Shown in pieces: positions 23,362 to 36,891 of a stretch of DNA of 64,000 bases. The notes under the pieces were generated by a model, which ran no database searches, was not told the DNA's origin, and was given only the letters and a program-made list of their open reading frames with translations. Origin of the DNA: Planctomycetales bacterium 71-10 (GTDB lineage: Bacteria > Planctomycetota > Planctomycetia > Isosphaerales > Isosphaeraceae); NCBI GenBank assembly GCA_001898385.1, contig MKTT01000061.1, forward strand, positions 22,856 through 86,855. The letters are read 5' to 3'. Position 1 is the first letter of the stretch; the number at the start of each line of letters is the position of its first letter. A program made the position numbers and the translations under genes.

Positions 23362-24840
23362 ATGACACCCGGCGAAGAGCTTCAGTCGACCGCCGTCGAG
23401 CCCACCGAAGCCGAGGCGGCCCAGGCCGAGCCCGAGAAGAGGAAGCTCGAGATCGACGTCCAGGTCTCGGACGCCGGTGCCTGCAAGAAGCACGTCACGA
23501 TCACGATCCCTCGGGCGGAAATCGACCGCCAGTATGAGGAGTCGCTCAAGACCCTCCAGAAGGAAGCCCAGGTCCCGGGCTTCCGCCCCGGCCGCGCCCC
23601 CAAGACGCTGGTCGTGAAGCGGTTCAAGAAGCAGGTCGGCGATCAGGTCAAGTCGGCCCTGCTGATGGAGACGCTGGAGCAGGTCGACCGCGACTACCAG
23701 CTCAACCCCATCACCCAGCCCAAGCTGGACGTCGCCGCCATCGCCCTCCCCGACGAAGGGCCCCTCACCTTCGACATGGAAGTGGAGGTCCGCCCCGAGT
23801 TCGCCGCCCCGGCGTACCAGGGCCTGAAGGTCAAGCGTCCCGTCCGGACCGTGTCGGACAAGGACGTCGACGTCCAGTATGACCGCTTCCTGGAGCGTTA
23901 CGCCCGCGTCGTCCCCAAGCTCGAAGGCGGGGCCGAGATCGGCGACTACGTCACGGCCGACCTGGCCTTCCTCCGCGAGGACGGCTCGACGATCAACGAG
24001 GTCAAGGAGATCCAGTTCCGGCTCCAGCCGGAGCTGCGGTTCCAGGACGGCCGCGTCCCCGAGATGGGCAAGGCCCTCGCCGGGGTCAAGCCGGGCGAGG
24101 CCCGCGACGCCGAGGCCGAGCTGGGGACCGCCGTCTCCGACCCGTCGCTCCGCGGCGCCAAGGTGAAGGTCAAGGCCGACGTCCATGACCTGAAGACGCT
24201 GGAACTCCCGCACGTCGACCACGAGTTCCTCCAGGGCATCGGCTTCGAGAGCGTCGACGAGCTGCGCGACGCCGTCCGCGACGCCCTGGTGCGCCGCGTC
24301 GAGGCCCAGCAGCGCCAGGCCGTCCGCCGCCAGGTGCTCGACGCCCTGATCGACGCCACCCCCTTCGAACTCCCCCCCGACCTGGTCTCCCGCCAGGAGA
24401 AGAGCACCGCCAGCCGGCTCGTGATGGAGCTGCGCGAGGAGGGCTTCTCCCCCGAGGACATCCGCGCCCGCCAGGCCGAGATCCGGGCCAACGCCCACGA
24501 GATGACCCTGCGGTCGCTCAAGGAGTTCTTCATCCTCGCCAAGATCGCCGAGGCCGAGGACATCAAGGTCGAGGCCGAGGACCTGGAGGCCGAGATCGAG
24601 GCGATGGCCGAGCGCTCGGGCGAGAGCGTCCGCCGCGTCCGCGCCCGGGTGGAGAAGGAGGGCCTCGACGACGCCCTCGCCACCCAGATCCTGGAGCGCC
24701 GCGCCCTCGACCACATCCTCAAGTCGGTCGAGTATGAGGACGTCGCGGCCGACGAGCCCGAGGTCGCCGTCGAGACCCTCGACGAGGCCGCCACCCCCGA
24801 GACGGAAGCCGGGGAATCCGACGAGACCGCCCCGGAGTGA
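23362..24840 (+). CDS. tig: Trigger factor
   Basis: VPGFRPGRAP ribosome-binding signature; FKBP-like middle domain; upstream of clpP. Confidence 0.95.
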   Translation: MTPGEELQSTAVEPTEAEAAQAEPEKRKLEIDVQVSDAGACKKHVTITIPRAEIDRQYEESLKTLQKEAQVPGFRPGRAPKTLVVKRFKKQVGDQVKSALLMETLEQVDRDYQLNPITQPKLDVAAIALPDEGPLTFDMEVEVRPEFAAPAYQGLKVKRPVRTVSDKDVDVQYDRFLERYARVVPKLEGGAEIGDYVTADLAFLREDGSTINEVKEIQFRLQPELRFQDGRVPEMGKALAGVKPGEARDAEAELGTAVSDPSLRGAKVKVKADVHDLKTLELPHVDHEFLQGIGFESVDELRDAVRDALVRRVEAQQRQAVRRQVLDALIDATPFELPPDLVSRQEKSTASRLVMELREEGFSPEDIRARQAEIRANAHEMTLRSLKEFFILAKIAEAEDIKVEAEDLEAEIEAMAERSGESVRRVRARVEKEGLDDALATQILERRALDHILKSVEYEDVAADEPEVAVETLDEAATPETEAGESDETAPE

Positions 24841-24947
24841 CCCGGCCGGAGCGGACCCCCTTGAATTTCGGCCGCCGGCCCCTTCAATAACACCATGAAG
24901 GGCCGCGCGGCCGTCTCGCCCCCACTCGTCACCGAAAGGGATCGTCC

Positions 24948-25598
24948 ATGGCCTTCGACCACCCGCTGGCGGAACCGAAGCTCCAGCGCTATCGCGACTA
25001 CGCGCGCCAGAGGCAGATGACCCTCGGCGACCTGCTGCTCGAGAACCGGATCGTGTTCCTGGAAGGCGTGATCGACGACGGCGTCGCCAACGCGGCCGTC
25101 ATGAAGTTCCTCTACCTCCAGTACGAGAACCGGACGCAGGGGATCAGCTTCTACATCAACAGCCCCGGCGGCAGCGTCAGCAGCACGCTGGCGATCTACG
25201 ACACGATGCAGTTCATCGAGTGCCAGATCGCCACCTATTGCATCGGCCTGGCGGCCTCCGGTGCCGCGGTCCTGCTGGCCGGCGGCAGCAAGGGCCGGCG
25301 CTTCTCGCTCCCCCACTCCAAGATCATGATCCACCAGCCCTACGGGCAGGTCGGCGGCCAGGTCTCGGACATCGAGATCCAGGCCGAGGAGATCGTCAAG
25401 AGCCGCCACGTCATCAACGAGATCCTCGCCCGCCACACGGGCCAGCCCATCGAGCGGATCGCCAAGGACACCGAGCGCGACCGCTACCTGACCGCCAATC
25501 AGGCCAAGGAATACGGCCTGGTCGATCAGGTCGTGGGCCGCATCGACGGCATCAAGGGCGTCGACGGCGTCACCCCGCCGGCCCCCGGCTCCTATTGA
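24948..25598 (+). CDS. clpP: ATP-dependent Clp protease proteolytic subunit (paralog 1)
   Basis: [16 protein letters not shown], catalytic Ser in AASG, MIHQP, RDRY. Confidence 0.93.
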
Positions 25599-25680
25599 TT
25601 CGATCCGGGACGAGGACGAACTCCACCGCGGCGTCGGGCCGGCAACGCCCGACGCAACGCCTGTCCGAGGGCTCACACCG

Positions 25681-26301
25681 ATGCCACTGGTTCCCATCGT
25701 CATCGAGCGCAGCGGCCGCGAAGAGCGGGCGATGGACATCTACTCGCGCCTGCTCCAGGACCGCATCATCATCCTGGGGACCGCGATCGACGACAACGTC
25801 GCCAACCTGGTCGTCGCCCAGATGCTCGTCCTGGCCCACCAGGACGCCAAGGCCGACATCCACCTGTACATCAACAGCCCCGGCGGCAGCGTGACCGCCG
25901 GCATGGCGATCTACGACACGATGCAGTGGGTCCCCTGCGACGTCGCCACCTACTGCATGGGCCAGTGCGCCAGCATGGGCTCCCTCCTCATGACCGCCGG
26001 CGCGGCGGGCAAGCGCTACGCCCTGCCCAACAGCCGGATCATGATCCACCAGCCGCTCGCCGGCATGGAAGGGACCGCCACCGAGATCCTGATCCATGCG
26101 GAAGAGTTCATCCGCATGAAGAAGGCCCTCAACGACATCTACCGCAAGCACACCGGCCAGACCCTGGAACGCCTCCAGGAAGACACCGACCGCGACCGCT
26201 TCATGTCGCCCCAGGAGGCGAAGGAGTACGGCCTGATCGACCACGTCGTCGACCGCGCCCCCGCCTTCCCGACCAAGACCGACGAGCCCGAGAAGTCCTG
26301 A
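25681..26301 (+). CDS. clpP: ATP-dependent Clp protease proteolytic subunit (paralog 2)
   Basis: [37 protein letters not shown]. Confidence 0.96.
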
Positions 26302-26495: not shown

Positions 26496-26963
26496 ATGCT
26501 GGAGCGGGCGAGCGTCGTCGGGGGCGGCATGCCGGCGGGGAGGCGGACGGTGAAGGCCGTGCCGTTCGTGGAGTTGGCGGGGGGGCGGGTGCAGGGGGTG
26601 GTGTCGAGCGGGTCGGACGTCGAGCGGGTGTACGTCTCGTTCATCGCTTCCGGCGGCGATTACTACTGCTGCACGAACAACAACCGGCCTTGCGGCGGGC
26701 TCGGCGGCGGCCCTTGCAAGCATATCCGCGAGATGGTCGACGAGGCCGTCGTCCAGTGCGGCGCGGCTCGCGTGGCCGAGTATCTGGGGATCGCGGAGGC
26801 CCAGGGCCTGGACGACGGCCGGGCCATCCTCGGGGCGTTGCGGGGAGACGAGCGGAAGGAGTCGCCCGGGGAGGTGTTCAGCCGGTTCCTGGGCTACCTC
26901 CGCTATTGCGAACTCCAGGCCAGGCCGGGGACGGTCCTGGAGATGGGCTGGTTCGCGTCATGA
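26496..26963 (+). CDS. Small SWIM-type zinc-finger protein
   Basis: YCCTNNNRPC-x7-CKH Cys/His cluster; ATG at 26496 with GGAGG; stop overlaps next start (ATGA). Confidence 0.8.
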   Translation: MLERASVVGGGMPAGRRTVKAVPFVELAGGRVQGVVSSGSDVERVYVSFIASGGDYYCCTNNNRPCGGLGGGPCKHIREMVDEAVVQCGAARVAEYLGIAEAQGLDDGRAILGALRGDERKESPGEVFSRFLGYLRYCELQARPGTVLEMGWFAS

Positions 26964-28246
26964 ACGCCCTGCAAACCATCCCCCCCGGCGTGGCCGAGGC
27001 GCTGGGGCTGGCCGAAGGCTTCGACGACGCCCTGATGCACGGCTTCGCCCGGCTCGGCGAGGACCAGCGCGGGGGGCTGGAGGCCCTGGCCGGCGTGTTC
27101 GACGGGTCGCCGCTGGGCCCGATCGTGGCCGAGGCGGTCGAGGCCGTCGGCCGGAGCGAGTTCGTCGCCCGCTCGTTCGCGGCGCTCGCGTCGGCCCGGG
27201 TCGCGCTCCTCGGCGCGGCGCACGACGCGCTCGTCGCCCAGGCCCGCGAGGCGCTGGGTCGGGTCGTCCCCGCGCCGGACGAGCCGCCGCCGTCCCCGCC
27301 GAACGGCTCGGCGGCCCTCCTGGCGAGCGTCCAGCAGTGGCTCTCGGAGCTGGCGATCGCGGGGCTGAAACACCTGGAGGAAGACTCCATCGCGCCGTTC
27401 TCCGCGACGCTGGAGAACCTCCAGGCCGTCCCGGAGATGGCCGGGCTCGCGGCGCTGCTGACCGGGTTCGCGAACGAGCTGACGCGGTACGTCCCGGCCT
27501 CGCGACGCCCCGACGTCCCCGCCTTCCGCTGGGGGGATCTCTGGTCCGCCGCGATGGTCCGCACCCACCAGTCGCCCGCCTCGCCGACGTTCCGCGAGGT
27601 CGAAGGCGTCCTGACGCCGCTGGGGCTCGACGTCCAGGCGCACGAGAACTTCCTGTGCGCGATCCTGTACGGGATCCTCGACGACGGCGAGGCCCGCACC
27701 GTCCGCATCCCGTTCAGCTCCTACAAGGTCGACGCCCTCGCGGGCCCCGAGGTCTGGGACCTTTTCGACCCGATCCAGGCGCCCGTGCTGGACGCGCTCG
27801 ACGGCCACAAGACCTTGCAAGTGAAGGGCGAGTTGCGGGCCGACGGCGACCTGATCCTCCGGTCGCCCCCCGAGGTCGGCGCGGCGGCGGACCCCTTCGG
27901 CGCGGCGGAACGGCTCGGGTCGTTGCCAGCGCCGCCGGCCCTCCATCGCCACCCGGTCCACATCGCCGAGCCGATCAAGCTCGCCGTCGGCCACGGCCTG
28001 CCGATCGCCCGCGAACGCCTCGGCGCGGCGAGCGAGCTGACCGAGGCGATCGTCGAGAAGGCCGCCGAGCTGGTCGGCCTGCTCCGATTCGACCGCGGCG
28101 GCTGGCGGTTCCAGCCGCTCTGCGCCGGGGCGAAGAAGAAGTACGTCGTGAGCGGCGAGGGCCTGGCGGGGGCCCGGAAGAAGCTCAAGAACCGCTCGCT
28201 CGACGTGCTCAAGGAACGCTCCGGCCGGCTCCTGCGCAAGGGGTGA
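26960..28246 (+). CDS. Hypothetical protein of the VWA/MoxR operon (428 aa)
   Basis: ATGA-coupled to the SWIM gene; ends 6 bp before the VWA gene; no family motif recognised. Confidence 0.8.
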   Translation: MNALQTIPPGVAEALGLAEGFDDALMHGFARLGEDQRGGLEALAGVFDGSPLGPIVAEAVEAVGRSEFVARSFAALASARVALLGAAHDALVAQAREALGRVVPAPDEPPPSPPNGSAALLASVQQWLSELAIAGLKHLEEDSIAPFSATLENLQAVPEMAGLAALLTGFANELTRYVPASRRPDVPAFRWGDLWSAAMVRTHQSPASPTFREVEGVLTPLGLDVQAHENFLCAILYGILDDGEARTVRIPFSSYKVDALAGPEVWDLFDPIQAPVLDALDGHKTLQVKGELRADGDLILRSPPEVGAAADPFGAAERLGSLPAPPALHRHPVHIAEPIKLAVGHGLPIARERLGAASELTEAIVEKAAELVGLLRFDRGGWRFQPLCAGAKKKYVVSGEGLAGARKKLKNRSLDVLKERSGRLLRKG

Positions 28247-28252
28247 TGCACG

Positions 28253-29665
28253 ATGGGCGACGCGAACGTCCTGAAGCGGCGGCAGATGCTCTACTGGCGG
28301 CTGATCGCCGCCTCGTCGGGCCTGGAAGACGTCGGGGCCGCGTTCGACGCGACGGCCGTCGAGTTGGCCGACCGCCTCGAACTGCCGGCCGCGATCCTCG
28401 ACCCGAACGTCGGCGTCGACGTGCTGCTGCATCGATATCCGAAGCTCAAGCCCGACTTCGACGCCGTCGCCGCGTGCGTCCAGGCCCCGGAAGGCGAAGG
28501 GCAGGGGGGGGCGGACGACGTCGACCTGCGGCGGACGTTCGCCTACTCGAAGCTCCTGCTCAACGTCTTCGGGCCGAACACCCGGACGCCGTCCTGCACC
28601 GCGGGCCAGTACCAGCAGTGGTGCCAGGACGTCGAGGCGCTGGAGCGTTGCATGGGCCTCGCCCCGGGGAGCCTGCGGGCCGGCGCGGGGCCGCCCGGCG
28701 GGGGGGCGGGGCAGACCATGGCGGGGACCAGCGGGGCCGGGATCAGCGGCAACGCCCCGAACGTCGACGATCGTCAGCTCCGCGAGGAGCTGGTGGCGAT
28801 GGAGAGCGACCTCGTCAAGCGCATGGACCTGCGCGAGGTCCTGAAGGACGACCGCCTCGCCGCGCAGCTCACGCCGACGCTGTCGCTGCTGGAACAGCTT
28901 CTTCGCGACAAATCGAACCTGTCGGGGCCGGCCCTGGCCAACGCCAAGCGACTCATCAAGAAGTACGTCGACGACCTGGCCGCGGTCCTCAAGCGGCAGG
29001 TCTTCAGCACGAAGACGGGGGAGATCGACCGCTCCGTCCCGCCGAAACGGGTCTTCCGCAACCTGGACCTCAAGCGGACGGTCTGGAAGAACCTCAAGAA
29101 CTACAACCCGCAGGACGGCCGGCTCTACGTCGACCAGCTCTACTACCGCCGCACCGCCCAGAAATCCCTGAACAAATATTTGATCGTCGTGGTCGATCAG
29201 TCGGGCTCGATGGTCGACGCGATGGTGCAGTGCGCGATCCTGGCGTCGATCTTCGCGACGATCCCGCGCGTGGTGGTCTCGCTGGTGGCGTTCGACACGA
29301 ACGTCATCGACCTGACCCCGTGGGCGGCCGACCCGTTCGAGTCGCTGCTGCGGACCAACCTCGGCGGCGGCAACGACGGGCCGCTGGCGATGCAGCACGC
29401 GCGGGGCCTGATCGTCGACCCCAGGCGCACCACGATGGTCTGGATCTCCGACTTCTACGAGTTCCACAACGACCGGCCGCTGTTCGAGATGATCAAGGCG
29501 GTGAAGCAGTCGGGGGTGCATTTCATCCCGGTCGGCTCGGTCAGCGGCAAGGGCTATTTCAGCGTGAACGAGTGGTTCCGCAAGCAACTGAAGTCGATCG
29601 GGCTGCCGGTCCTCACCGGCAACATCAAGAAGCTCATCGTCGAGCTGAAGAAGCAGCTCAACTGA
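28253..29665 (+). CDS. VWA domain protein (CoxE/YehP-like)
   Basis: MIDAS VVVDQSGSM, VAFDT, LGGGNDG, WISDFYE; helical N-terminus, IDxxxTV-like region. Confidence 0.88.
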   Translation: MGDANVLKRRQMLYWRLIAASSGLEDVGAAFDATAVELADRLELPAAILDPNVGVDVLLHRYPKLKPDFDAVAACVQAPEGEGQGGADDVDLRRTFAYSKLLLNVFGPNTRTPSCTAGQYQQWCQDVEALERCMGLAPGSLRAGAGPPGGGAGQTMAGTSGAGISGNAPNVDDRQLREELVAMESDLVKRMDLREVLKDDRLAAQLTPTLSLLEQLLRDKSNLSGPALANAKRLIKKYVDDLAAVLKRQVFSTKTGEIDRSVPPKRVFRNLDLKRTVWKNLKNYNPQDGRLYVDQLYYRRTAQKSLNKYLIVVVDQSGSMVDAMVQCAILASIFATIPRVVVSLVAFDTNVIDLTPWAADPFESLLRTNLGGGNDGPLAMQHARGLIVDPRRTTMVWISDFYEFHNDRPLFEMIKAVKQSGVHFIPVGSVSGKGYFSVNEWFRKQLKSIGLPVLTGNIKKLIVELKKQLN

Positions 29666-29688: not shown

Positions 29689-30855
29689 ATGGCCAGGGCG
29701 AAGTCGGGCGGGGCCGAGGGGGCTGTCGCGACGCAGGCGGATCCGGGCGAGGTCCTGCGGGCGCCGGCGGAGGTGAAATACGCCGAGGAGCTGGAATGGC
29801 TCCGGTCGATCGACGGCGACGCGAGGCCGGCGTCGTGGCGGCTGTCGCCGCGGCTGGTCCGCGTGTTCGTCCTGGGATCGTCGCCGTCGGACCGGCTGGA
29901 GCGCGAGATCCGGCCCAAGTTCTTCGGCGACCCGGGGACCGTGGAGCGCGCCATCGTCACCCTGGCGAGCGACCGCGGCCTGCTGCTGATCGGCGACCCG
30001 GGGACCGGCAAGAGCTGGCTGGCCGAGCTGATGGCCGCGGCGATCTGCGGCGACAGCACGCGCGTCGTGCAGGGGACGGCCGGGACGACGGAAGATCATA
30101 TCAAGTATTCCTGGAACGTCGCGATGGTCATCGCGGCCGGCCAGTCGCGCGAGAGCCTCATCCCGTCGCCGATCATGACGGCCATGCAGGGGGGGCTCAT
30201 GGGACGGTTCGAGGAGCTGACCCGATGCTCCAGCGACGTCCAGGACGCGCTGATCTCGATCCTGTCGGAGAAATACATCGCGATCCCCGAATTGAAGGGG
30301 GACGACGTGGTCTTCGCGAGGCCGGGCTTCAACGTCATCGCCACGGCCAACGCGCGCGACCGGGGCGTGAACGACCTCTCGTCGGCGCTCAAGCGGCGGT
30401 TCAACTTCGTCCAGATCCCGGTCGTCACGAACAAGAAGACCGAGCGCGAGATCGTCCTGTTCCGGACGAAGGAACTCCTGGCGCGGAACCGATTCGAGGT
30501 CGAGACGCCGCCGGCCCTGCTGGACATCCTGCTCCAGACGTTCGCCGATTTGCGCGAGGCGTCGGCCTCGCAGACGTCGGAGGATGACCGGCTGGAGAGC
30601 GCGCTGTCGACGGCCGAGCAGATCGGCGTGCTGGAGGACGCGGTGTTGCACGGCCGGTTCTTCGGCGACGGCTCGCTCGCCCCCGGGGCCCTGGCGAAGT
30701 CGCTGGTGGGGACGCTCGTCCGCCGCATCCCGGAGGATGTCTCGATCCTCAACAAGTTCTGGCACGCGGCCGTCGCCAAGCGGGCCAAGAAGGACGGCGG
30801 CGCGTGGGAGGCGTTCGAAGCCGCCGGCAAGGACGCCCTGGAAGGGATGAAGTGA
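29689..30855 (+). CDS. MoxR-family AAA+ ATPase, YehL subfamily-like
   Basis: Walker A GDPGTGKS, QGTAGTTEDHIKYSWN, Walker B RFEELTR, ATANARDRGVNDLSSALKRRF; ATG at 29689. Confidence 0.92.
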   Translation: MARAKSGGAEGAVATQADPGEVLRAPAEVKYAEELEWLRSIDGDARPASWRLSPRLVRVFVLGSSPSDRLEREIRPKFFGDPGTVERAIVTLASDRGLLLIGDPGTGKSWLAELMAAAICGDSTRVVQGTAGTTEDHIKYSWNVAMVIAAGQSRESLIPSPIMTAMQGGLMGRFEELTRCSSDVQDALISILSEKYIAIPELKGDDVVFARPGFNVIATANARDRGVNDLSSALKRRFNFVQIPVVTNKKTEREIVLFRTKELLARNRFEVETPPALLDILLQTFADLREASASQTSEDDRLESALSTAEQIGVLEDAVLHGRFFGDGSLAPGALAKSLVGTLVRRIPEDVSILNKFWHAAVAKRAKKDGGAWEAFEAAGKDALEGMK

Positions 30856-30891
30856 CGCGACCGTCGCGGCCCTGGGATGGTCCCTGTAACG

Positions 30892-31075
30892 CCCTTCCCC
30901 CCTCGCGGGGGAAGGTGGCCCGGAGGGCCGGATGAGGGGGACGACACGCGATAAGGCTGTTGGGTTTCGTGGCGGCCGTTTCGAGAGGGCCCGCAAGCTC
31001 CGATGGCGCCCGTGCTGGTCGTCCCCCTCATCTGACGCCTTCGGCGTCTGTCTTCCCCCGCGAGGGGGGAAGACC
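30892..31075. repeat. ~180-bp REPIN-like element, copy 1
   Basis: Left arm CCTTCCCCCCTCGCGGGGGAAGG...ATGAGGGGGA; right arm TCCCCCTCATCTGA...TCTTCCCCCGCGAGGGGGGAAGAC. Confidence 0.85.
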
Positions 31076-31121
31076 GTCCGCGTCGCAAGTCCAGAATCCT
31101 TGAGGGCCAGGAAGTGACGCC

Positions 31122-34040
31122 ATGAGCACGCCGACCGACCGCGACCGGGCGGACCTGCCCATCTCCTTCGCCCCGCTCCGCGACCAGCTCCTCGCCGCCG
31201 CCGGCGCGTTCGCCGCCGACGCGAAGGCGCTCGGCCACATCCTGGGCGGGCTGGTGGACGACGTGGAGCGGGCGTTCCGCGAGCCGATGGAGATCTTCCC
31301 GGTCTGCCACCACTCGCCGTCCTCGGCCTTGCACATGGCGCGTCGGCTGGCGGCCCGGCCGCCGCGGGCGATCTTCATGGAGTGCTGCGAGGACATGCGG
31401 CCGGTCGTCGAGGGCCTGCGCGATTGCCGCGCGCCGGTGGCCCTCCAGGCGTTCGCGTCCACGTCCGAGCACTTCCCGGCCGCTTGGTCGCCGCTCAGCC
31501 TGGTCTGCCCGCTCACCGAGTTCTCGGCCGAGTACCAGGCGATCGCTTACGCGATGGAGACGTCGGGCGTCGAGCTGCATTTCGTCGACCGCTCGGCCGA
31601 TCACGTCTTCCAGTGGATGCCCCAGGAGCCGGGGGCGCTGGAGGACGCGGTGCCGGACGACCCCGACGCCGAGGATCAGGACGCCGGCATGCACGGCTCG
31701 GCCGTGGGCGTGGAGATGGGCTCGCTGGTCCCCACGTTCGGCCTCTTCCGCGACGTCCTGCTGAAGAACGCCCGCGTCCAGCACTTCAGCGAGTGGTGGG
31801 ACCAGTACGTCGAGGAGGCCGTGATCGACGGCGACTACCCGGCGTACCGGCAGGTGATGTTCCTGATCGGCAGCCTCTTCCGACGCCTCGGCACGGCCGA
31901 GCCCGACCGCCGCGAGGACGAGCTGCGCGAGCGGCACATGTGGACGCGGATCAAGCAGGGGCTCCGCGCGACGGGCGTCGACCCGAAGGACGCCCTCTAC
32001 ATCTGCGGCGCGGCCCACGTCGCCAGCCGGGTCGCCGAGTTCGGCCTGGAGAACGACGCCCTCTGGGACGTCCCCCCGCGCACGCCCACGACCTGGCTCT
32101 ACGGGATCCTCCCCAGCAGCTACAGCGCCATCTCGCACCAGTTCGGCCACCCGCGCGGGGCCGTCACGCTCGCGGAGACCCGCTGGCGCAAGGGGATCGC
32201 GCGGAACGGCCTCAAGCCGTTCGCGATCCAGCCCCGGATGAAGGGGCGGAAGGGCGAGGAGGAAGGTGCCGCGCCGGCGAAGGCGACGAAGCCGAAGAAG
32301 GCCCCGAAAGCGGTCCCGCCGCCCCCGCCGATCGAGGTCGCGCCCGCGCCTGACCGCCTCCTCGGGTATCTCCAGGGGCCGCCCCCGCCGGTGGAGTCGG
32401 ACGAGGAGGAGCTGCTGAAGAACTGCGTCAAGATCGTCGAGCTGGCGCGGAACAACGGCTACCTCGCGTCCACGGCCGACGGCATCGCGACGTACCAGAC
32501 GGCCATCCTGCTGGCGAACCTCCGCAACCGCCGCCACCCCACCCCCTACGACTTCCGCGACGCGGCGATCACCTGCATCGAGAAGGAGTCCGTCCCGGGC
32601 AGGCGCGACGTCGCCCGGCTCTGCGACGTCCTGCTCGGGGGCGATCGGGTCGGCCGGATCGGATTCGAATCGCTCCCGCCGCTCGCCCGCGACGTCTACG
32701 CGCGGCTCGCCCCGCTGCCGATCACGTTGGAGTCGCGGACGATCCAGCGGGCGCTGCTGGACTTCCGCAAGTCGCCCGAGCTGCTGCCGTGCTCGGACCT
32801 GCTGTGGAAGCTGCGCTATCTGCTCCCCCAGAACGTCGTCCGGCCGATCATGGGCCGGCGCGAGCTGGGGCACGTCCCGCAGCAGGAGAGCTGGGACGTG
32901 GCGATCGGCCAGAACCAGGGGGCCGTGATCCAGCTCGGATACGAGGGCATGACGGTCGAGCATGTGCTCGAACGTCGATTGAAGAAGGCGGCCTTCGACC
33001 CCGACGCCCGCGCGGCCGACGCGCTCCGCGCGGCCGAGGACGGCCTTTTGTTCCTCGGGAGCGAGCGGCTGGTGGAGGAGCTGGGCGAACGCGCCGTCGA
33101 CCTGCTCACGCGCGAGCCGGACGCGAGGCAGGCCCGCGAGATCCACACGCGGGTCACGCGTCTGGTCCACTACTACCGGACCACGGAAGCCGGCCTGCCG
33201 GCGTGGCTGAAGCGGTTCGTCACCGCGGGGTACTCGCACTACGCGACGATGCTGCCGAACGGCTTCGCCGACCGGGGCGTCGCGCCGGGCGACCTGGCGG
33301 CGATGCTCCAGTTCATCTTCACGCTGGAGAGCCTGGCGCTCTCGCTGGGGTGCGAGCGCAGCCAGCTCGTGATCGCGGTCCGCCAGGCCGGGCCGGTCGC
33401 GGTCGACCCGCCCAAGCTCTCGATCCTCTGGGCCGCGGAATGCGTCCTGCGGCTCCGGGATGTCGCCGGCCTGCGGGCCCGGTTCGACGCCCTGGCCGAG
33501 AACGAGCTGACGCTCCCCGCGCTGCCGGAATACCTGGAAGGGCTGCTGCTGGCCCTCGCCTTCACGCCGCTGGTGGGCGGGCTGACGGTCGAGCTGTTGA
33601 GCAAGGCGTTCGAACGCCTGCCGGATCGACTGCTCATGCCGTGGATGCCGAAGCTCCTGCGCATGCTGCGCCCGCACGCGGACGCCGCGCTGCCGGTCCT
33701 GGTGAAGGAGGCCGCGGCCGTCTTCCCGAGGGGGCTCGACGCCCTGGAGGGCTGGACGGCCCCCTGGGATCGGACGAAGGCCGGGCCGAGCGTCGCGACC
33801 GTCGAGGCGCCCCGGGCGGCGAAGGGGCCGACCGAACGCGAGGCGTCGCGGCTCCTCGCGGCCTTCCCCGCGACGACCGACGCCCTGGCGACGGCCCTCG
33901 GACTCCCCGCCGTCTGGTCGGCCGACGGACCGTCCCCCTCGCCGTCGGACGCGCCTCGCGACTCCGAGCACGAAGCCGCCCGCGCCCTCCTCCGCGATCA
34001 TCCCGCGACGTCCATCGCGGCGGCCTCGGCGCTCGGGTGA
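31122..34040 (+). CDS. DUF5682/YehM-like large protein
   Basis: PVCHHSP, LQAF, CPLTEFSAEYQA, RERHM, CGAAH motifs; directly follows the YehL-like ATPase. Confidence 0.82.
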   Translation: MSTPTDRDRADLPISFAPLRDQLLAAAGAFAADAKALGHILGGLVDDVERAFREPMEIFPVCHHSPSSALHMARRLAARPPRAIFMECCEDMRPVVEGLRDCRAPVALQAFASTSEHFPAAWSPLSLVCPLTEFSAEYQAIAYAMETSGVELHFVDRSADHVFQWMPQEPGALEDAVPDDPDAEDQDAGMHGSAVGVEMGSLVPTFGLFRDVLLKNARVQHFSEWWDQYVEEAVIDGDYPAYRQVMFLIGSLFRRLGTAEPDRREDELRERHMWTRIKQGLRATGVDPKDALYICGAAHVASRVAEFGLENDALWDVPPRTPTTWLYGILPSSYSAISHQFGHPRGAVTLAETRWRKGIARNGLKPFAIQPRMKGRKGEEEGAAPAKATKPKKAPKAVPPPPPIEVAPAPDRLLGYLQGPPPPVESDEEELLKNCVKIVELARNNGYLASTADGIATYQTAILLANLRNRRHPTPYDFRDAAITCIEKESVPGRRDVARLCDVLLGGDRVGRIGFESLPPLARDVYARLAPLPITLESRTIQRALLDFRKSPELLPCSDLLWKLRYLLPQNVVRPIMGRRELGHVPQQESWDVAIGQNQGAVIQLGYEGMTVEHVLERRLKKAAFDPDARAADALRAAEDGLLFLGSERLVEELGERAVDLLTREPDARQAREIHTRVTRLVHYYRTTEAGLPAWLKRFVTAGYSHYATMLPNGFADRGVAPGDLAAMLQFIFTLESLALSLGCERSQLVIAVRQAGPVAVDPPKLSILWAAECVLRLRDVAGLRARFDALAENELTLPALPEYLEGLLLALAFTPLVGGLTVELLSKAFERLPDRLLMPWMPKLLRMLRPHADAALPVLVKEAAAVFPRGLDALEGWTAPWDRTKAGPSVATVEAPRAAKGPTEREASRLLAAFPATTDALATALGLPAVWSADGPSPSPSDAPRDSEHEAARALLRDHPATSIAAASALG

Positions 34041-34150: not shown

Positions 34151-34825
34151 ATGATGCGTGAAACGTTCCGCGACCGCCGCGAGGCCGGGCGGGACCTGGC
34201 GGACCGGATGACCGGGCTCGCAGGCCGTCCGGACGTGCTGGTCCTGGCCCTCCCGCGCGGGGGCGTGCCGGTGGGGTACGAGGTCGCGCGGAAGCTCGGC
34301 GCTCCGTTGGATGTGTTCCTCGTCCGCAAGCTGGGCGTCCCCGGGCAACCCGAGCTGGCCTTCGGGGCCATCGCCAGCGGCGGGGTCCGGCTGCTCAATC
34401 GCGACGTCGTGCAGGGGCTCCGCATCCCTCCCGAGGAGGTGGAGGCCGTCGCCGCCGAGGAGGGCGAGGAACTGGCCCGCCGCGAGCGCGCGTACCGCGA
34501 CGACCGGCCCCCGCCCGACGTCCGGGGCAAGACCGCGATCCTGGTGGACGACGGCCTGGCCACCGGCGCGAGCATGCGAGCCGCCGTCGCCGCCCTGCGC
34601 GGGCTCGACCCCGCCCGGATCGTGGTGGCGGTCCCCGTCGCGGCGCCGTCGGTGTGCGAGGCGTTCCGCCGCATCGTCGACGAGGTCGTGTGCGCCCGCA
34701 CGCCCGACCCCTTCCATGCGGTCGGGCTGTGGTATCACGACTTCTCGCAGACGAGCGACGCGGAGGTGCGCGAACTCCTCGACCGGGCGGCGTCGGAACA
34801 TGAAGCGCCGTCGATCCCGAACTGA
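34151..34825 (+). CDS. Phosphoribosyltransferase-family protein
   Basis: FRDRREAG, LALPRGGVPV, PRPP loop LVDDGLATGAS, VGLWYHDFSQTSD. Confidence 0.9.
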   Translation: MMRETFRDRREAGRDLADRMTGLAGRPDVLVLALPRGGVPVGYEVARKLGAPLDVFLVRKLGVPGQPELAFGAIASGGVRLLNRDVVQGLRIPPEEVEAVAAEEGEELARRERAYRDDRPPPDVRGKTAILVDDGLATGASMRAAVAALRGLDPARIVVAVPVAAPSVCEAFRRIVDEVVCARTPDPFHAVGLWYHDFSQTSDAEVRELLDRAASEHEAPSIPN

Positions 34826-34839
34826 GGGAGGGCCCCGTC

Positions 34840-35502
34840 ATGCGTCCAGCAACCCTCGCCACCCCCGCGCCCGTGGAGATCCCCGCCGGGACGGTCATCC
34901 TGAAGGGCGACCTGACGGTCCCCGAGGCGCCTCGGGGCGTGGTCCTGTTCGCGCACGGCAGCGGCAGCGGCCGTCTCAGCGCGAGGAACCGCCACGTCGC
35001 CGAGGCGCTCCAGGCCGGCGGCCTCGCGACGCTCCTGTTCGACCTGCTCACCGAGGAGGAGGAGCGGCGGGAGCGCCATACGCGCCACCTGCGGTTCGAC
35101 ATCGACCTGCTGATCGGCCGCCTGATCGCCGCGACGGGATGGGCGGAGTCGCGGCCCGAACTCCTCGGCCTGAAGGTGGGGTATTTCGGGGCGAGCACGG
35201 GCGGGGCGGCGGCGCTGGGCGCGGCGGCCGAGCGGCCCGAGGTCGCGGCGGTCGTCTCGCGAGGAGGCCGGCCCGACCTCGCCCCCGACTCCGCGCTGCT
35301 CGCCGTGCGGGCCCCGACCCTGCTGATCGTCGGCGGCGCGGACGCGCAGGTGCTCGCGCTGAACCGGCGGGCGATGGACCGGATGTCCGGCCCCGTCGCG
35401 CTGGAGGTCGTCCCGGGCGCCACGCATCTGTTCGAGGAGCCCGGCGCCCTGGAGCGGGTGGCGGGCCTGGCCCGGGAGTGGTTCGAACGGCATCTCCGGT
35501 GA
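34840..35502 (+). CDS. Alpha/beta hydrolase (dienelactone hydrolase-like)
   Basis: FAHGSGSGR, GYFGASTGG nucleophile, SRGGRPDL, GATHLFEE. Confidence 0.9.
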   Translation: MRPATLATPAPVEIPAGTVILKGDLTVPEAPRGVVLFAHGSGSGRLSARNRHVAEALQAGGLATLLFDLLTEEEERRERHTRHLRFDIDLLIGRLIAATGWAESRPELLGLKVGYFGASTGGAAALGAAAERPEVAAVVSRGGRPDLAPDSALLAVRAPTLLIVGGADAQVLALNRRAMDRMSGPVALEVVPGATHLFEEPGALERVAGLAREWFERHLR

Positions 35503-35529
35503 GCCGCGCGGCCGACATCGGCCGGGAGG

Positions 35530-36891
35530 ATGGCCATGGCTCGGATCGATCGCAGGATGTGGCGGGAACCCTCGACTCCCGCCGGCCTGATCTCCCAGGC
35601 CCGCGCGCTGGCGAGGCCGCTGCGCGGGCCCGACGACCTGGGGCCGCTCATCGACCGGATCGGGGACGCTCGCTTCGTCCTCCTCGGCGAGGCGTCGCAC
35701 GGGACGTCCGAATTCTACTCGTGGCGCGCGGCGATCTCGCGGCGGCTGATCGTCGAGGAGGGCTTCTCGTTCATCGCCGTCGAGGGGGACTGGCCCGATT
35801 GCTACCGGGTCGACCGCTACGTCAAGGGCCGCGCCGACGCCGCCGGCTCGGCCCGCGAGACGCTCCGCGCCTTCGAGCGCTGGCCGACGTGGATGTGGGC
35901 GAACGAGGACGTCGTCGCGCTGGCGGAGTGGCTCCGCCGCCGCAACGATTCCGTCCCGGAGGGCCGCAAGGTCGGCTTCTACGGGCTGGACGTCTACAGC
36001 CTGTGGGAGTCCCTGCACGCGATCGTGGGCTATCTGAAGAAGCACGACCCCTCGGCGCTGCCGGCCGCTCTGGCGGCCTTCCGCTGCTTCGAACCCTACG
36101 CGGAGGACGTCCACGACTACGCGCGGGCGGCCCGGTTCGCGCCCAACTCGTGCGAGCGCGAGGTCGTCGAGCTGTTGAAGGAGGTCCGCCGCGCGAAGGG
36201 GCGCGACGAGCCCCCGTCGGCCGACGAGCGCGAGGCCCGGTTCGCGGCCGAGCAGAACGCCCTGGTGCTGCGCGACGCGGAGACCTACTACCGCATCATG
36301 GTGCGCGGCGGGCCGGACACCTGGAACCTCCGCGACCGGCACATGGTCGAGACGCTGGAGCGGCTGATGGAGTTCCACGGGCCGGACGCCCGCGCCATCG
36401 TCTGGGAGCACAACACCCACGTCGGGGACGCCCGGTACACCGACATGGCCGACCGCGGCGAGGTCAACGTCGGCCAGCTCGTGCGCGAGCGCCGCGGGGA
36501 CGAGGGCGTCGTGCTCGTCGGCTTCGGCGCGCATCGCGGGACCGTCCTCGCCGGCCGCGAGTGGGAGGCTCCGATGGAGAGGATGCCCGTCCCTCCCGGC
36601 CGCGAGGGGAGCTGGGAGGACGTCTTCCATCGGGCGCTCGGGTCGGACGCGCTCGTCGTCTTCGACGAGGCGTCGCGTACGCCCGAGGCCCTGGAGCCTC
36701 GCGGCCACCGCGCGATCGGCGTGGTCTACCACCCCGAGTACGAACGGCTCGGCAACTACGTCCCGACGGTCCTCCCGCGGCGCTACGACGCGTTCCTGCA
36801 CCTGGAGCACGCGCGGGCGCTCCGCGCCCTGCACGGCATCCCCGTCCGCGAGGGGGGCGAGGTCCCGGAGACGTACCCTTCGGGCGTGTGA
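35530..36891 (+). CDS. Erythromycin esterase family protein
   Basis: LLGEASHGT, VEGDWPD, FYGLDVYSL, RDRHM, WEHNTH, RAIGVVY. Confidence 0.92.
   Translation: MAMARIDRRMWREPSTPAGLISQARALARPLRGPDDLGPLIDRIGDARFVLLGEASHGTSEFYSWRAAISRRLIVEEGFSFIAVEGDWPDCYRVDRYVKGRADAAGSARETLRAFERWPTWMWANEDVVALAEWLRRRNDSVPEGRKVGFYGLDVYSLWESLHAIVGYLKKHDPSALPAALAAFRCFEPYAEDVHDYARAARFAPNSCEREVVELLKEVRRAKGRDEPPSADEREARFAAEQNALVLRDAETYYRIMVRGGPDTWNLRDRHMVETLERLMEFHGPDARAIVWEHNTHVGDARYTDMADRGEVNVGQLVRERRGDEGVVLVGFGAHRGTVLAGREWEAPMERMPVPPGREGSWEDVFHRALGSDALVVFDEASRTPEALEPRGHRAIGVVYHPEYERLGNYVPTVLPRRYDAFLHLEHARALRALHGIPVREGGEVPETYPSGV

Follow-up and report, generated by a model that had tools for sequence, protein, structure and literature searches.

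Introduction

TIKI proteins are metalloproteases that clip the N-termini of Wnt proteins (PMC12329661, citing Zhang 2012 and Bazan 2013), and they share a superfamily with TraB, PrgY, GumN, EreA, and ChaN. In the Ere-family enzyme EreC, H50, E78, and H289 hold the nucleophilic water, with H50 acting as the base, and R261 stabilizes the oxyanion; Ere enzymes that carry the same tetrad are metal-independent (PMC7979712). A helical minor lobe has been described for EreC and for BcR135, the latter being the structure that served as the search model for EreC (PMC7979712). Here, we describe a five-gene operon in a 64,000-nucleotide stretch of DNA from Planctomycetales bacterium 71-10 (contig MKTT01000061.1; the whole stretch is hereafter called the window), which ends in a gene for a protein of the DUF5682 family, and we compare the N-terminal domain of this protein with the TIKI/TraB/Ere superfamily.

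DUF5682 proteins and their MoxR/VWA partners are spread over many bacterial phyla and are encoded, as yehLMPQ, by almost all Escherichia coli, without an assigned function. The papers that name yehL and yehM do so in passing and do not address function, a survey of MoxR-vWA systems makes no mention of DUF5682, YehM, TIKI, or EreA (PMC7159879), and a literature search on MoxR, vWA, and TIKI together returned nothing relevant. Neither in papers nor in source annotations did we find a stated link between DUF5682 and TraB, and YehM may already have been assigned to the same fold group by an automatic, ECOD-type classification of AlphaFold models. The DUF5682 homologs listed in our searches are named "DUF5682 family protein" or "hypothetical protein" or carry names that are as uninformative.

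Results

All positions are those of the window, and the genes and motifs located in it lie on the + strand. The DUF5682 gene (31122..34040) encodes a protein of 972 amino acids. The original prediction, made from the sequence alone, had read four short motifs in the N-terminal part of this protein as the catalytic layout of TraB, TIKI, EreA, and ChaN proteins, and we found all four in the 972-residue open reading frame exactly where they had been placed. Motif 1, PVCHHSP (residues 60-66; 31299..31319), is a (P/G)xxH element with an invariant H63 and is the counterpart of the His in the TraB GTxH and of EreC H50. Motif 2, AIFMEC (residues 83-88; 31368..31385), is a strand with an invariant E87, which corresponds to EreC E78, while motif 3, RERHM (residues 269-273; 31926..31940), with an invariant R269 and M273, corresponds to the RNxxM of TraB, the RDxxM of Ere, and EreC R261. 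Motif 4, GAAH (residues 296-299; 32007..32018), is a second GxxH with an invariant G296 and H299, and it is the counterpart of the TraB GAxH and of the second His in the HNxH of Ere.

A HMMER scan with residues 1-370 against 1.8 billion cluster representatives returned 254 relatives at an E-value of ≤0.001, and we aligned 46 of these, at 22-56% identity, with the query to assess conservation. The invariant columns were H63, E87, P105, S135, E137, D156, E231, R269, M273, G296, and H299, and the conservation of the His and Glu residues on which the proposal turned (H63, E87, and H299) therefore holds among homologs down to 22% identity. Per-column counts gave His at position 63 in 48/48 sequences, preceded at position 60 by Pro in 37 and Gly in 11, as well as R269 and M273 in 48/48 each, with Glu or Asp at position 270 in 47/48. 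The same invariant core was present in a second set of 104 sequences drawn from two subfamilies, except that M273 was conserved at ≥90%. All of the invariant residues are also kept by E. coli K-12 YehM, whose motif 1, GIRH, is a literal GxxH, and by the second DUF5682 paralog in the genome. Judged from these alignments, the motif pattern exceeds chance, and the N-terminal domain retains every residue of the catalytic set found in the enzymatic branches of the superfamily.

For profile comparison, TraB_PrgY_gumN (n = 25), Cofac_haem_bdg/ChaN (n = 30), and Erythro_esteras (n = 15) were each represented by a family alignment of sequences taken from planctomycete genomes. Using full-length rows, hhalign matched DUF5682 to TraB with a probability of 93.3% (E 2.8e-7) over 201 columns, covering TraB positions 8-248 of 265. 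A separate comparison with the N-terminal domain (DUF5682-N) gave 91.4% against TraB (P 9e-7) and 68.8% against ChaN (P 4.5e-5); for reference, the known pairs within the superfamily scored 94.8% (TraB-ChaN), 96.5% (Ere-ChaN), and 2.5% (Ere-TraB). The DUF5682/TraB alignment was colinear with all four motifs in register, such that P60-x-x-H63 paired with G-T-x-H, E87 with the Glu of TraB strand 2, D156 with the Glu at the end of the TraB "LE" strand, R269-E-x-x-M273 with R-N-x-x-M, and G296-x-x-H299 with G-A-x-H. Each half of the domain also matched when taken alone: the C-terminal half (residues 250-345) matched the cognate regions of TraB (P 2e-6), ChaN (P 5e-6), and Ere (P 0.005), and the N-terminal half (residues 40-160) matched TraB positions 9-51 (P 0.0015). 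Reversed profiles and 20 column-shuffled TraB profiles reached ≤0.5%, and all negative controls, including the C-terminal region of DUF5682, reached ≤0.8%. At the position of R269, Arg was found in 24/25 TraB and 15/15 Ere sequences, and Trp or Lys in 29/30 sequences of the ChaN type.

Together, these findings suggest that the DUF5682 N-terminal domain is very probably a divergent homolog of the TIKI/TraB/PrgY/GumN-EreA-ChaN superfamily; the kinship first read from the motifs is supported by the high-scoring match to TraB, by the independent matches of the two halves, and by the failure of the controls. The protein in the window gave no match to the Pfam TraB_PrgY_gumN model (PF01963; gathering score, 26.8 bits), nor did it match the Erythro_esteras (PF05139) and ChaN (PF04187) models, and by this measure the N-terminal domain falls in none of the three Pfam families.

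During these searches, we also observed several planctomycete proteins of 330-570 amino acids whose match to the TraB Pfam model is below threshold and confined to its final ~60 positions, i.e., the stretch with the RNxxM...GxxH region (e.g., G126:C37:1090-1290, G141:C44:7861-8046, and G030:C188:1118-1297). These proteins may be further unrecognized members of the superfamily.

We then considered the predicted structure of the domain. AlphaFold2 (AF2), run for residues 1-370 on a 104-row alignment, gave a model with a predicted local distance difference test score (pLDDT) of 88.8 and a predicted template modeling score (pTM) of 0.88, and the full-length model reached a pLDDT of 86.8 and a pTM of 0.79. 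In the N-terminal model, a strand at residues 57-61 is followed by H63, the strand at 83-89 holds E87, the strand at 125-131 leads to S135 and E137 at the N-terminus of a helix, and the strand at 151-156 ends in D156. A helical excursion follows at about residues 159-258, after which a long helix (260-284) bears RERHM and a strand (291-296) runs into G296xxH299. In the model, the conserved residues thus lie at the C-termini of strands or the N-termini of helices, which is consistent with their being on one face of the sheet, and the predicted layout is the one expected of a parallel α/β sheet whose active site lies where the strands end C-terminally, together with a helical minor lobe like that of EreC and BcR135. 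Among the Foldseek matches of this model in the Protein Data Bank (PDB), the four of highest template modeling score (0.23-0.27, with 283-316 aligned columns) were 2rad_A, 3b55, 7w5z_E, and 8b6h_DQ. The first two, at Foldseek ranks 2 and 8, are the Ere-like BcR135, and a TraB-profile search showed the other two to be the Tetrahymena complex IV subunit named "TraB family protein," the single member of that family with a solved structure. All long Foldseek alignments of the N-terminal domain are therefore to members of the superfamily, none of them significant.

The full protein matches Pfam DUF5682 (PF18934) in two stretches with 94.2 bits against a cut-off of 26. Since the canonical DUF5682 paralog of the same genome scores 375 bits against this model, the 972-residue protein represents a long, divergent subfamily. 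Its start codon at 31122 fits the N-termini of its homologs. A longer N-terminus hidden in the 266-bp gap upstream was considered and ruled out by the starts of the homologs and by the insertion of a repeat element in that gap. The TraB/TIKI/EreA-like α/β domain, as delimited by AF2 and hhalign, spans residues 1-361 (31122..32204), including the helical insert at about 159-258, and is followed by a disordered, low-confidence linker rich in Pro, Lys, and Ala (residues 362-410; 32205..32351; pLDDT, ~48-57) for which no secondary structure is predicted. The C-terminal region (residues 411-972; 32352..34037) is predicted to consist mostly of α-helical repeats with a small β element at residues 542-593. 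When we compared the DUF5682 profile with PDB sequences, it matched only designed (de novo) helical repeat proteins, by way of this C-terminal region, and the best Foldseek matches of the full-length model were karyopherins, HEAT-like proteins, and designed repeat proteins, none of them significant (E ≥0.015). No signal peptide or membrane anchor was seen on reading the sequence, and the protein is predicted to be cytoplasmic. The window has ~70% G+C, and the nearest relatives of its proteins are found in Paludisphaera and Singulisphaera (Planctomycetota, Isosphaeraceae).

The DUF5682 gene is the fifth of an operon whose order is Cys/His protein, helical protein, VWA protein, MoxR ATPase, and DUF5682 protein. 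Singulisphaera (Planctomycetota) and Haliangium (Myxococcota) each have these five genes in an identical order, and the arrangement is thus conserved across two phyla. Gene 1 (26496..26963) encodes a 155-residue protein with a CC-x6-C-x7-CxH cluster that is 74% identical to the 157-residue product of the first gene in the Singulisphaera operon and matches no Pfam model, SWIM included. This small protein may serve as a minimal zinc module, SWIM-like in kind, where canonical operons have the 614-residue SWIM protein of the YehQ type. Gene 2 (26960..28246), whose start overlaps the gene 1 stop by 4 nucleotides, encodes a helical protein of 428 residues that is 68% identical over its full length to a 431-residue Singulisphaera protein and for which Pfam, NCBIfam, and PADLOC contained no match. 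Gene 3 (28253..29665) encodes a CoxE-type VWA protein (Pfam VWA_CoxE, E 3.8e-25) with the metal ion-dependent adhesion site motif DxSxS at residues 315-319. Gene 4 (29689..30855) encodes a MoxR-class AAA+ ATPase of the AAA_5/YehL type (Pfam AAA_5, E 2.5e-37) that is 40% identical to E. coli YehL, and its Walker A motif (GDPGTGKS) and Walker B-like motif (RFEE) are both invariant across six homologs. The operon therefore encodes an AAA_5 MoxR ATPase, a VWA_CoxE protein, and a DUF5682 protein together, i.e., a yehLMPQ-like core.

Directly upstream of the operon and on the same strand lie the trigger factor gene (tig) and two tandem clpP genes (23362-26301); in Singulisphaera and Haliangium, the genes ahead of the operon are different ones. 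We also considered a role in anti-phage defense. PADLOC matched no defense model beyond a weak AAA match, no effector-type domains are present, and the family is not mentioned by Kaur et al. 2020; we found this role to be without support.

Between the ATPase and DUF5682 genes, the intergenic stretch 30856-31121 contains a palindromic dispersed repeat of ~190 bp (30889..31077; no strand assigned) with inverted arms at 30889-30914/31052-31077 and 30931-30945/31018-31032. This element, which resembles a miniature inverted-repeat transposable element or a repetitive extragenic palindrome, is present in at least 40 near-full-length copies of 80-86% identity on many contigs of the genome, with 334 candidates in a first look. 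In the operons of Singulisphaera and Haliangium, no more than 2-4 bp separates the ATPase gene from the DUF5682 gene, and the repeat at this locus is therefore an insertion.

The genome carries two divergent paralogous DUF5682 systems. The second lies ~48 kb away on the same contig, at about contig positions 98000-107500 and outside the window, and encodes a 1000-residue protein without a family match, an AAA_5 ATPase, a canonical DUF5682 protein (Pfam E 9e-112), a VWA_CoxE protein, and a protein with a weak SWIM match. Its gene order is that of E. coli yehLMPQ, namely AAA-DUF5682-VWA-SWIM; a metagenomic contig with a canonical system reads AAA-(213-residue protein)-DUF5682-VWA.

Downstream of the DUF5682 gene, we found a separate module (34151..36891; Pfam assignments) that consists of genes for a phosphoribosyltransferase (PRTase; 34151-34825), a dienelactone hydrolase-like protein (DLH; 34840-35502), and an Ere-family esterase (35530-36891; Pfam Erythro_esteras, E 1.4e-126). 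The original prediction had pointed to parallel motifs in the last of these, 3.5 kb downstream, and the parallels are real: the protein carries EASHG (residues 54-58), VEGD (84-87), RDRHM (268-272), and WEHNTH (292-297) and is a genuine, distant relative within the superfamily. A PRTase gene also adjoins an Ere gene in three further genomes of planctomycetes (L032, L033, and L035), in one of which (L032) the DLH gene is also present. In Singulisphaera and Haliangium, unrelated genes follow the operon and no Ere gene lies beside it, and we therefore rejected a functional link between the Ere and DUF5682 proteins. Because the Ere gene keeps its own PRTase and DLH partners and is absent beside the related operons, its position here is coincidental and it is not part of the system. 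Against the EreA, EreB, and EreD resistance gene models, the Ere protein scored ≤32 bits, far under the cut-offs of 750-800, and it is thus not a macrolide resistance allele.

Discussion

Building on the homology and on the conservation of residues and operon, we infer catalytic activity, possible metal use, a type of substrate, and coupling to the ATPase for this system as follows. The DUF5682 N-terminal domain would be an active hydrolase that uses His, Glu, His, and Arg with or without a metal, a reading of the sequences to which we assign a probability of roughly 0.6. In such an enzyme, R269 would stabilize the transition state as proposed for EreC, and H63, E87, and H299 would position and activate water, possibly with the help of a divalent metal, as has been reported for TIKI. 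The hydrolase domain would be tethered by the flexible linker to the α-helical repeat scaffold, and the MoxR/VWA pair may bind and remodel either a substrate protein or the hydrolase itself, leading to ATP-gated cleavage. By analogy with TIKI and PrgY, the substrate may be a peptide or a protein terminus. That the enzyme is a protease, rather than a hydrolase of another type, is an analogy we would back at somewhat worse than even odds. We are similarly tentative, leaning slightly against it, about the full model in which DUF5682/YehM would be the catalytic subunit of a widespread and hitherto unrecognized ATP-gated hydrolase machine, with a MoxR ring and a VWA adaptor that bring a protein substrate to a TIKI-like, terminus-trimming protease or expose it for cleavage.

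Several points weigh against a hydrolase reading. The term "DUF5682" is absent from the searchable literature, and no member of the family has a demonstrated activity, metal, or substrate. In the PDB, Foldseek found no significant match to the N-terminal model (best E 1.5), and single-sequence and profile hidden Markov model searches of PDB sequences found no solved relative of the domain. In hhalign, DUF5682-N reached only 1.5% against Ere over the whole domain, and only 2 of 47 DUF5682 homologs reach PF01963 at an E-value of 0.045, with none passing the threshold. ChaN, a relative by fold, binds haem and has no known enzyme activity (PMC7979712), and the repeat between the ATPase and DUF5682 genes may affect their co-transcription, which is not certain in this genome. 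Since the accepted Ere-TraB pair scores similarly low, the weak DUF5682-Ere score does not count against homology, and the sub-threshold matches to PF01963 mark the N-terminal domain as a superfamily relative rather than a member of that Pfam family.

The insignificant Foldseek E-values, along with a Pfam TraB model that stays under threshold on every DUF5682 member, are what would be expected if the resemblance of the motifs were coincidental and DUF5682 were unrelated to TraB, TIKI, and EreA. We consider this very improbable, given that the profile-profile match is colinear, with both halves independently finding the correct positions, that the reversed and shuffled controls stay at or below 0.5%, and that the long structural alignments are confined to the superfamily. 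If the kinship is accepted, the domain could still be a ligand-binding module of the TraB/ChaN fold that takes up a metal, haem, or another cofactor, in which case the conserved His/Glu/His would hold the ligand for delivery and the operon would encode a CoxD/CoxE-like chaperone for cofactor insertion or maturation. The CoxE type of the VWA partner fits such a role, as do the MoxR class of ATPases, known for metal-cluster insertion (PMC7159879), the Cys/His cluster of gene 1, the haem binding of ChaN, and the appreciable hhalign score against the ChaN family. However, the similarity to TraB exceeds that to ChaN, and the equivalents of all four EreC catalytic residues are invariant in DUF5682. 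Because one of them, the Arg that is shared by TraB, Ere, and DUF5682, is Trp or Lys in the ChaN type, an enzyme is favored over a ChaN-like binder, and we regard the ligand-binding role as unlikely.

There are also precedents for a role of the fold in which catalysis has no part. Roles other than proteolysis have been described for eukaryotic TraB-family proteins such as TRABD and TRB1/2, in which a protease activity is unproven (PMC12329661), and the TraB-family protein of Tetrahymena is a structural subunit of complex IV. Along these lines, and in keeping with a literature that reports no activity for any member, DUF5682 could be a catalytically dead scaffold (a pseudoenzyme) that helps to assemble the MoxR/VWA complex, with the conserved residues serving folding or protein contacts. 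Pseudoenzymes usually lose their catalytic residues, whereas in DUF5682 these four (His, Glu, Arg, and His) stay unchanged in at least 47 sequences down to 22% identity, across phyla, and in E. coli, alongside the further polar invariants S135, E137, D156, and E231; a dead scaffold is, in our view, quite improbable.

Returning to the hydrolase reading, the placement of the N-terminal domain in the TIKI/TraB/Ere superfamily with an intact tetrad turns the DUF5682 family into a testable enzyme, open at once to study through four point mutants and in E. coli as a tractable model. The superfamily is so far known from Wnt processing, pheromone control, and macrolide resistance; with DUF5682, it would gain a branch that is cytoplasmic and AAA+-coupled. 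Should the full model hold, E. coli K-12 and many phyla would possess a new class of AAA+-coupled protease, an ATP-gated machine that is a bacterial counterpart of Wnt processing by TIKI. New at this locus are the long divergent subfamily with its permuted gene order, the second, canonical system, the inserted repeat, and the coincidental Ere neighbor.

Compared with the described families, DUF5682-N is most like TIKI/TraB/PrgY/GumN, with which it shares the two GxxH motifs, the strand-2 Glu, and the R-(N/D/E)-x-x-M helix in like order and spacing, as well as a like fold (α/β with a helical insert). To this, DUF5682 adds the four further polar invariants and two extra N-terminal helices, and it differs in being fused to a helical-repeat region of ~560 residues and encoded in a MoxR/VWA operon. 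The Ere family (EreA/B/C/D and BcR135/136; PF05139) has the same tetrad layout, with EreC H50/E78/R261/H289 corresponding to DUF5682 H63/E87/R269/H299, and the same division into a major lobe and a helical minor lobe; on the other hand, Ere proteins have GExxH, with a Glu that stabilizes the catalytic His, where DUF5682 has (P/G)xxH and hence no Glu at -3 from the first His, and the DUF5682 locus has no macrolide context. In the ChaN/Cofac_haem_bdg family, the His, Glu, xDxxM, and GxxH positions align with those of DUF5682, but ChaN is a haem-binding lipoprotein and its type has replaced the invariant Arg. At the level of the operon, the combination of a MoxR ATPase with a VWA co-chaperone and further components is that of the MoxR-vWA systems, such as CoxD/CoxE, RavA/ViaA, and the ternary conflict systems (Kaur et al. 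2020, PMC7159879). Another close system is E. coli yehL-yehM-yehP-yehQ (MoxR ATPase, DUF5682, VWA, and SWIM), which has the same core of AAA_5, DUF5682, and VWA_CoxE as the operon in the window; the latter differs in encoding the long subfamily (~970 residues, 22-27% identity to the canonical type), in its permuted gene order, and in having the 155-residue Cys/His protein in place of the 614-residue SWIM protein.

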